Shown here piece after piece: positions 40,596-41,953 of a stretch of DNA of 48,502 nucleotides. Origin of the DNA: Escherichia phage Lambda; sequence record NC_001416.1. The stretch is one strand, 5' to 3'. A program made the translations under genes and the position numbers. Within the stretch, counting starts at the first letter, position 1. Each line of letters opens with the position of its first letter. The notes beneath the pieces are model-generated. The model worked only from the letters and a program-made list of their open reading frames with translations. It did not search any database and was not told the DNA's origin.

Positions 40596-40628
40596 AGGCC
40601 TGCTGGTAATCGCAGGCCTTTTTATTTG
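40596..40628 (+). terminator. tR2: tR2 rho-independent terminator
   Basis: aggcctgctggtaatcgcaggcct hairpin followed by ttttatttg. Confidence 0.85.
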
Positions 40629-40643
40629 GGGGAGAGGGAAGTC

Positions 40644-41084
40644 ATGAAAAAACTAACCTTTGAAATTCGATCTCCAGCACATCAGCAAAACGCTATTCAC
40701 GCAGTACAGCAAATCCTTCCAGACCCAACCAAACCAATCGTAGTAACCATTCAGGAACGCAACCGCAGCTTAGACCAAAACAGGAAGCTATGGGCCTGCT
40801 TAGGTGACGTCTCTCGTCAGGTTGAATGGCATGGTCGCTGGCTGGATGCAGAAAGCTGGAAGTGTGTGTTTACCGCAGCATTAAAGCAGCAGGATGTTGT
40901 TCCTAACCTTGCCGGGAATGGCTTTGTGGTAATAGGCCAGTCAACCAGCAGGATGCGTGTAGGCGAATTTGCGGAGCTATTAGAGCTTATACAGGCATTC
41001 GGTACAGAGCGTGGCGTTAAGTGGTCAGACGAAGCGAGACTGGCTCTGGAGTGGAAAGCGAGATGGGGAGACAGGGCTGCATGA
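40644..41084 (+). CDS. ninB: NinB (Orf recombination mediator)
   Basis: ORF track 40626..41084; start taken at MKKLTFEIR (40644). Confidence 0.9.
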   Translation: MKKLTFEIRSPAHQQNAIHAVQQILPDPTKPIVVTIQERNRSLDQNRKLWACLGDVSRQVEWHGRWLDAESWKCVFTAALKQQDVVPNLAGNGFVVIGQSTSRMRVGEFAELLELIQAFGTERGVKWSDEARLALEWKARWGDRAA

Positions 41085-41953
41085 TAAATGTCGTTAGTTT
41101 CTCCGGTGGCAGGACGTCAGCATATTTGCTCTGGCTAATGGAGCAAAAGCGACGGGCAGGTAAAGACGTGCATTACGTTTTCATGGATACAGGTTGTGAA
41201 CATCCAATGACATATCGGTTTGTCAGGGAAGTTGTGAAGTTCTGGGATATACCGCTCACCGTATTGCAGGTTGATATCAACCCGGAGCTTGGACAGCCAA
41301 ATGGTTATACGGTATGGGAACCAAAGGATATTCAGACGCGAATGCCTGTTCTGAAGCCATTTATCGATATGGTAAAGAAATATGGCACTCCATACGTCGG
41401 CGGCGCGTTCTGCACTGACAGATTAAAACTCGTTCCCTTCACCAAATACTGTGATGACCATTTCGGGCGAGGGAATTACACCACGTGGATTGGCATCAGA
41501 GCTGATGAACCGAAGCGGCTAAAGCCAAAGCCTGGAATCAGATATCTTGCTGAACTGTCAGACTTTGAGAAGGAAGATATCCTCGCATGGTGGAAGCAAC
41601 AACCATTCGATTTGCAAATACCGGAACATCTCGGTAACTGCATATTCTGCATTAAAAAATCAACGCAAAAAATCGGACTTGCCTGCAAAGATGAGGAGGG
41701 ATTGCAGCGTGTTTTTAATGAGGTCATCACGGGATCCCATGTGCGTGACGGACATCGGGAAACGCCAAAGGAGATTATGTACCGAGGAAGAATGTCGCTG
41801 GACGGTATCGCGAAAATGTATTCAGAAAATGATTATCAAGCCCTGTATCAGGACATGGTACGAGCTAAAAGATTCGATACCGGCTCTTGTTCTGAGTCAT
41901 GCGAAATATTTGGAGGGCAGCTTGATTTCGACTTCGGGAGGGAAGCTGCATGA
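41081..41953 (+). CDS. ninC: NinC, PP-loop (PAPS-reductase-like) family protein
   Basis: ORF track 41021..41953; start [15 protein letters not shown] at 41081; SGGxxS PP-loop motif. Confidence 0.88.

Follow-up and report, generated by a model that had tools for sequence, protein, structure and literature searches.

The ninC gene of Escherichia phage lambda, analyzed here within the complete 48,502-nt sequence NC_001416.1 (the window), encodes a protein that almost certainly belongs to the PP-loop/phosphoadenosine phosphosulfate (PAPS)-reductase-like superfamily. Within this superfamily, NinC is very probably no CysH but a member of a separate family carried by phages. The data support this picture at the level of fold, motifs and cysteine alignment, the absence of the reductase motif, fusions to methyltransferases, genomic context and selection. 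We tentatively favor the view that NinC is an ATP- and iron–sulfur (Fe-S)-dependent enzyme that modifies nucleic acid, probably DNA, in the service of counter-defense. The narrower claim of a DNA substrate or an anti-Dnd role is more doubtful.

An earlier note on this DNA, made from the letters alone, had assigned NinC to the PP-loop superfamily and suggested a profile search and structure prediction as checks. The Pfam model PAPS_reduct (PF01507) matches NinC residues 3–145 with an E value of 7e-9 and 36.4 bits, above its gathering threshold of 22.5 bits, and a profile–profile comparison with APS reductase gave a probability of 94.7% (E 6e-8). The AlphaFold2 model has a predicted local distance difference test score (pLDDT) of 86.7, with residues 271–290 below 50, and its Rossmann-like alpha/beta/alpha fold matches solved members of the superfamily. 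Both profile and fold searches identified CysH and APS reductase as the closest solved structures, with identities of 14–22% that are confined to the N-terminal ~160 residues. A single-sequence search of the PDB with NinC gave marginal matches only, and a search of viral folds in BFVD returned 'PAPS reductase' labels and nothing further. A six-residue motif alone could be due to chance; judging from the sequence comparisons, the match as a whole is not. The Pfam hit, the profile–profile match and the conservation of the motifs among relatives thus bear out the assignment.

To describe the motifs, we aligned NinC with 111 near-full-length representatives drawn from a library clustered at 50% identity (n = 112). 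The earlier note had made its assignment depend on conservation of the motif residues in homologues, and loop residues S8, G9, G10 and S13 are kept in 94–97% of these sequences. SGG..S is present in 103 of the 112, with a loop consensus of SGG(R/K)(T/S)S. The DTGCEH motif, in which E40 is invariant (112/112), corresponds in the alignments to DTGYLFPETY in CysH and to DTGRLHPETY in APS reductase. In the Arg-rich loop, a region of the PAPS-reductase fold for which phosphate binding is expected, G138, R140 and R146 are invariant, while D142 and E143 are kept in 98–99%. Other invariant or near-invariant positions include T37-G38-x-E40, G185-N186, K193 and R235. Comparison of ninC with its lambdoid homologues gave dN values of 0.05–0.15 with dS saturated, no stop codons and a dN/dS of at most ~0.05, showing that the gene is under purifying selection.

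Cysteines were placed by hhalign of NinC against the assimilatory APS reductase of P. aeruginosa (2goy), whose sequence was confirmed via a PDB search. C111 falls on the first Cys of ECCGIRKIEPL in 2goy, and K116 and P119 fall on its K and P; C187 and C190 fall on the two Cys of SIGCEPCT. Of the four cysteines that hold the [4Fe-4S] cluster in APS reductase, three are matched in NinC by C111, C187 and C190. The fourth ligand position, the second Cys of ECCGIRKIEPL, is where NinC differs, with Thr112 in its place. C111 and K116 are each kept in 111 of the 112 members, and GNCxxC is likewise found in 111. Two further cysteines, C270 and C274, are kept in 95% and 98% of the family, and the GSCSESCE segment that contains them is identical in protein p0018 of Vibrio phage 44E38.1. 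By analogy, this CxxxC tail, predicted to be disordered, is reminiscent of the mobile cysteine peptide at the C-terminus of CysH enzymes.

In environmental virus surveys, NinC-like genes are routinely given the sulfur-assimilation label 'cysH'. If NinC were a true PAPS/APS reductase, it would be an auxiliary metabolic gene that raises host sulfate assimilation during infection, in line with the database name 'PAPS reductase family', the closest solved structures, and the viromics papers in which phage 'cysH' is counted among sulfur auxiliary metabolic genes. However, the catalytic CG[LIVM]H (ECGLH) motif of sulfonucleotide reductases occurs in 0 of the 112 family members. APS reductase 2goy and the CysH structures 1sur and 6vpu carry the ECGLH catalytic Cys, whereas in hhalign the KECGLH of 2goy lies opposite approximately H220 of NinC, where there is no Cys. 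Scores against the NCBIfam CysH/APS models are far under their cut-offs (PRK02090, 16.5 versus 154 bits; TIGR00434, 13 versus 165; TIGR02055, 12.4 versus 235). The loop also differs, being degenerate in CysH (SSSFGIQA) and a full SGG..S in NinC, and the low identity noted above is limited to the N-terminal part. NinC has ~130 additional C-terminal residues unmatched by the reductases, and the query-normalized TM-score is ~0.39. Unlike the genes for CysH and APS reductase, ninC genes lie outside any sulfur-assimilation context; in the phages inspected, their neighbors are replication, recombination and methyltransferase genes, and never cys genes. We therefore regard the reductase explanation as highly improbable, and identity with true CysH was rejected on the absent catalytic motif together with the sub-cut-off model scores. 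Because the reductase motif is absent, the viromic 'cysH' label is likely wrong for this family, and by the same sequence criterion a 'cysH' of the NinC family probably does not serve sulfur assimilation.

Among curated defense profiles, NinC matches SspD best (PADLOC, E 1.8e-14), followed by BrxP and DndC (DndC, E 4e-3). The SspD match joins NinC residues 4–147 to positions 3–122 of a 277-position profile, i.e. its N-terminal half only, and the DndC model TIGR03183 scored 12.3 bits against a cut-off of 290.4. SspD, DndC and BrxP are PAPS-reductase-type proteins that install phosphorothioate (PT) in DNA, and in BREX type 4 a protein of this type replaces the methyltransferase as the 'writer'. 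They resemble NinC in having the PAPS-reductase fold, an ATP-type PP-loop and conserved cysteines. On the other hand, the PT writers have Asp in the loop where NinC has Thr, and NinC lacks the adjacent ATPase (DndD/SspC/BrxC) and DNA-binding partner (DndE/SspB/DUF4007) of these systems.

A second link to phosphorothioation comes from Vibrio crassostreae podoviruses, for which Piel et al. (preprint, 10.1101/2021.05.05.442762) described Dnd-resistant 'red' and Dnd-sensitive 'blue' phages. Two red-specific genes were reported, p0019, with no function assigned, and p0018, which encodes a 479-aa fusion of a PAPS-reductase domain with Dam; a blue phage that had received this region from 44E38.1 by recombination plated fully on a Dnd-carrying host. 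The PAPS domain of p0018 (P0066 in our set) is 59% identical to NinC over residues 1–280 (E 2e-117), with the first 16 residues identical and all motif residues shared. Like lambda ninC, p0018 comes after an O-like gene and a gene in the P position. The two phages differ in that 44E38.1 has the C-terminal Dam domain and the upstream partner p0019, both of which are absent in lambda. We compared a red genome (44E38.1, L009 1422–4440) with a blue one (66E30.1, L010). The flanks are 96–99% identical, and the red-specific block is confined to p0019 in full, the final 38 codons of p0020 (the O-like initiator) and the part of p0018 that encodes the PAPS domain. At the corresponding place, the blue phage carries a P-like helicase loader and an N4/N6 methyltransferase. 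Hence p0019 occupies the helicase-loader position and probably travels with the initiator C-terminus, which would make the PAPS domain the more plausible anti-Dnd determinant.

The NinC family comprises 586 phage records, mostly from Vibrio, Salmonella, Stx and Escherichia phages. In every phage inspected, the ninC homologue lies in the early replication/recombination module, beside helicase, primase, nucleases, NinB or recombinases. The recurrent fusion partners of the NinC domain are solely DNA N6-adenine methyltransferases, from two families and in both orders (Table 1), and no other partners were found in the longer family members. A metallo-beta-lactamase fragment in one member is probably a chimera and was set aside. 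Two PHROG profiles, of 460 and 495 positions, match NinC over positions 161–432 and 1–274 only, as expected if these profiles represent methyltransferase fusions. Methyltransferase genes also occur as separate neighbors. Salmonella phage Oslo has its genes arranged as NinB-Dam-NinC-NinD; a 'phage N-6-adenine-methyltransferase' gene adjoins ninC in some E. coli prophages; and at one locus an MT-A70-like gene (DPPW motif) lies directly downstream of the ninC homologue.

The scheme we envisage would involve ATP use, an Fe-S cluster, a DNA substrate, sulfur chemistry and an anti-defense role. The SGGRTS loop would bind ATP, and NinC would adenylate an oxygen on nucleic acid, most likely DNA. A [4Fe-4S] cluster on C111, C187 and C190 could then pass sulfur or another nucleophile, displacing AMP, with the CxxxC tail either supplying the fourth ligand or carrying persulfide received from host IscS. 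The product, an epigenetic mark, or interference with host marking, would allow phage DNA to escape sensing of the Dnd/DndFGH or Ssp type. In relatives, the fused or adjacent Dam-type methyltransferase might provide DNA binding or a second mark. Lambda NinC stands alone and would therefore have to rely on partners from the host; a requirement for Dnd/Ssp components of the host would account for the lack of a phenotype in K-12 and for lambda DNA being treated as unmodified. A more specific proposal, which we judge rather unlikely, is that NinC proteins are self-contained or host-assisted 'writers' that equip phage DNA with sulfur or another group by means of ATP and an Fe-S cluster, thereby hiding it from phosphorothioate-sensing defenses. 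If it were true, many viral 'cysH' sulfur genes would be counter-defense genes, and lambda's own would have been overlooked since K-12 lacks the matching defense.

A number of observations weigh against a counter-defense role in DNA modification. Lambda DNA grown in K-12 is the standard 'unmodified' control, and we know of no report of a NinC-dependent modification of it. Resemblance to any characterized enzyme is limited to the N-terminal ~160 residues of NinC. The earlier note had described a PP-loop of the SGGxDS type; the SGG..S portion is indeed present and conserved, but the canonical Asp is replaced. Loop position 12 is T in 99 of the 112 members, S in 11 and D in none, so ATP pyrophosphatase activity of NinC is not assured. 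In each of the four established phosphorothioation systems, the PAPS-reductase protein requires a neighboring P-loop NTPase (PMC12914056). No such gene lies beside lambda ninC, whose neighbors are NinB and NinD; nor was an NTPase annotated immediately beside the gene in any of the other phages inspected, the nearest being ~1.2 kb upstream in Vibrio phage 1.177.O. A literature search returned no report of a biochemical activity of NinC, and one on IbrA/IbrB gave unrelated papers. Lambda can do without the gene provided that polar effects on Q are complemented (PMC10695390), and no partner for NinC was found in the lambda interactome (PMC3224144). With respect to genomic context, an adjacent Dam gene is seen at only 4 of the 80 closest lambdoid IMG/VR loci, and we accordingly treat methyltransferase adjacency as a minority pattern that counts for less than the fusions. 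In the lambda window, tblastn gave no significant match to Dam, to the D12 methyltransferase or to a p0019 homologue. The nin region is, moreover, a mosaic of unrelated accessory genes, making the evidence from neighborhood weak.

The Vibrio evidence has difficulties of its own. In the preprint (10.1101/2021.05.05.442762), the effects of p0018 and p0019 were not told apart, and neither were those of the PAPS and Dam domains. Furthermore, the anti-Dnd entries in AntiDefenseFinder are adnd_p0020 and adnd_p0021, i.e. not p0018 and p0019. The first corresponds to GenBank p0020, the O-like replication initiator (phrog_16167, E 2.9e-62), and the second to p0021, a 51-aa protein that the Dnd-sensitive phage also encodes, with 100% identity. 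This conflict may reflect a locus-tag mix-up or a re-mapping of the activity in the published paper. A mix-up would inflate 'anti-Dnd' counts in virome surveys. Taken together, the DNA-modification or anti-restriction role that the earlier note had raised as speculation is plausible and has gained circumstantial support (the fusions, adjacent Dam genes in some lambdoid phages, the SspD profile match and the 59%-identical p0018 in the anti-Dnd block).

Several other activities would be compatible with the fold. NinC might modify RNA, tuning translation for the phage by tRNA thiolation or lysidine-like chemistry comparable to that of TtuA, TtcA, NcsA or TilS, and fold scores for such enzymes are in fact nearly equal. 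Yet no RNA-binding domain (THUMP, PUA or TtuA zinc fingers) was detected in the Pfam scan or in the longer members, the recurrent fusion partners are DNA methyltransferases, and the best profile matches, SspD and BrxP, are DNA enzymes. TtuA, NcsA/Ncs6 and LarE, PP-loop enzymes that insert sulfur with a [4Fe-4S] cluster, act on tRNA or a cofactor and are unlike NinC in Cys positions and accessory domains; Pfam and NCBIfam scans found no profile-level match of NinC to them. We consider an RNA substrate unlikely, and would say the same of a new, non-phosphorothioate DNA modification, for example an ATP-dependent base elaboration in series with an adenine methyltransferase-like partner. The latter idea would fit the three N6-adenine methyltransferase contexts (PF05869 at either end, PF02086, and the adjacent MT-A70-like gene with its DPPW motif), as well as the family-specific invariant E40, N186 and K193 and the T-for-D loop, which differ from DndC/SspD. 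However, the partner methyltransferase is absent from lambda, we know of no unusual base in lambda DNA, and the chemistry is not deducible from sequence alone. Less likely still, NinC could act without modifying nucleic acid, as a decoy or inhibitor of host Dnd/Ssp or IscS, or as a small-molecule nucleotide enzyme. A mimic might well resemble just the N-terminal half of SspD/DndC and lack the partner ATPase, as NinC does, and other known anti-Dnd proteins target DndFGH and not DNA. Against this, the nucleotide-loop and Cys residues are near-invariant even in distant members and dN/dS is at most 0.05, which favors catalysis over simple binding. On balance we retain, tentatively, the ATP- and Fe-S-dependent modifying enzyme as our preferred reading.

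The relationship of NinC to PAPS reductases was already known and is not new. RefSeq names the product of lambdap64 a 'phosphoadenosine phosphosulfate reductase family protein' (as tabulated in PMC10695390), PGAP uses the PAPS reductase family name for E. coli prophage copies as well, and GenBank and PHROGs do likewise. A 2024 paper lists lambda among mobile elements with PAPS reductase homologues and notes that their roles may extend past sulfur metabolism (PMC11437467). Hence the earlier note's 'unassigned for lambda' is correct as regards function, though not as regards homology. What is new here is the motif anatomy over 112 family members. NinC is among the last lambda genes without a function, and a vague annotation now translates into a directly testable question about its role.

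The reading frame that the earlier note placed at 41081–41953 was confirmed from the sequence, with an ATG at 41081, a TGA at 41951–41953 and a product of 290 aa. Lambda record OR974322.1 matches at 41081–41950 and carries the label 'NinC: phosphoadenosine phosphosulfate reductase'. The longest mechanical open reading frame, of 310 aa, has its start farther upstream, at a GTG (41021) within ninB that would add 20 residues. NinC homologues of 278–292 aa align from NinC residue 1; hence the ATG is taken as the real start, and the GTG is contradicted by these alignments. A GGAG-like stretch, GGGGAGA, lies at ~41064–41070, upstream of the ATG. The ATGA overlaps at both ends of the gene (Table 1) suggest, at the level of sequence, translational coupling within the delayed-early rightward operon. 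Just upstream of ninB is a strong terminator-like hairpin (40596–40629, + strand) with an 8-bp stem containing six GC pairs, followed by a T-run. It sits at the position expected for tR2. Given this hairpin, ninC would be transcribed only when antiterminated, as a delayed-early gene.

Table 1. Features of ninC in the window, and methyltransferase fusions among its relatives
Feature	Position	Strand	Remarks
ninC coding sequence	41081..41953	+	290 aa plus stop; open reading frame and translation identical to annotated lambda NinC
ATGA overlap, ninB stop/ninC start	41081..41084	+	Read from sequence
PP-loop SFSGGRTS, aa 6–13	41096..41119	+	Predicted ATP/pyrophosphate-binding; aligns to CysH loop region
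DTGCEH, aa 36–41	41186..41203	+	Nucleotide-binding DTG motif of the PAPS-reductase fold plus family-specific Glu-His
CTDRLKLVP, aa 111–119	41411..41437	+	C111, predicted Fe-S ligand, then RK..P motif
GIRADEPKR, aa 138–146	41492..41518	+	Arg-rich loop; aligns with TGQRRDQSPGTR of 2goy
GNCIFCIKK, aa 185–193	41633..41659	+	C187 and C190, predicted Fe-S ligands
GSCSESCE, aa 268–275	41882..41905	+	C270xxxC274; start of disordered C-terminal tail
ATGA overlap, ninC stop/ninD start	41950–41953	+	Read from sequence
C-terminal PF05869 Dam fusions			P0121, P0125, P0158, P0066
N-terminal PF05869 Dam fusions			P0123, P0126
PF02086 D12-class methyltransferase fusion			P0131

About one-third of the representatives at 50% identity carry an insertion of 65–99 aa between R146 and Y155 (window position ~41519), for which no Pfam match was obtained. 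Among complete E. coli genomes, ninC was found in 567 of 5426 (~10%). Of 618 ninC-like places in such genomes, 73 are on plasmids of ~90–117 kb, presumably phage-plasmids.

The gene upstream of ninC is not ninB at IMG/VR loci L050–L090, which represent Stx-type and other lambdoid prophages with NinC ~80% identical. At 17 of these loci it encodes an HD-domain-like protein of 182 aa, at 12 a protein of 230 aa and at 11 one of 147 aa. The order in an Aeromonas phage is NinC, HD phosphohydrolase, C5 methyltransferase, nuclease, and an HD hydrolase is possibly a second recurring partner of NinC. According to the literature, PAPS-reductase-like genes also adjoin type IV-B CRISPR-Cas loci and the 'PANGU' defense clusters of YejK-like nucleoid proteins, and thus the fold recurs on both the defense and the counter-defense sides.

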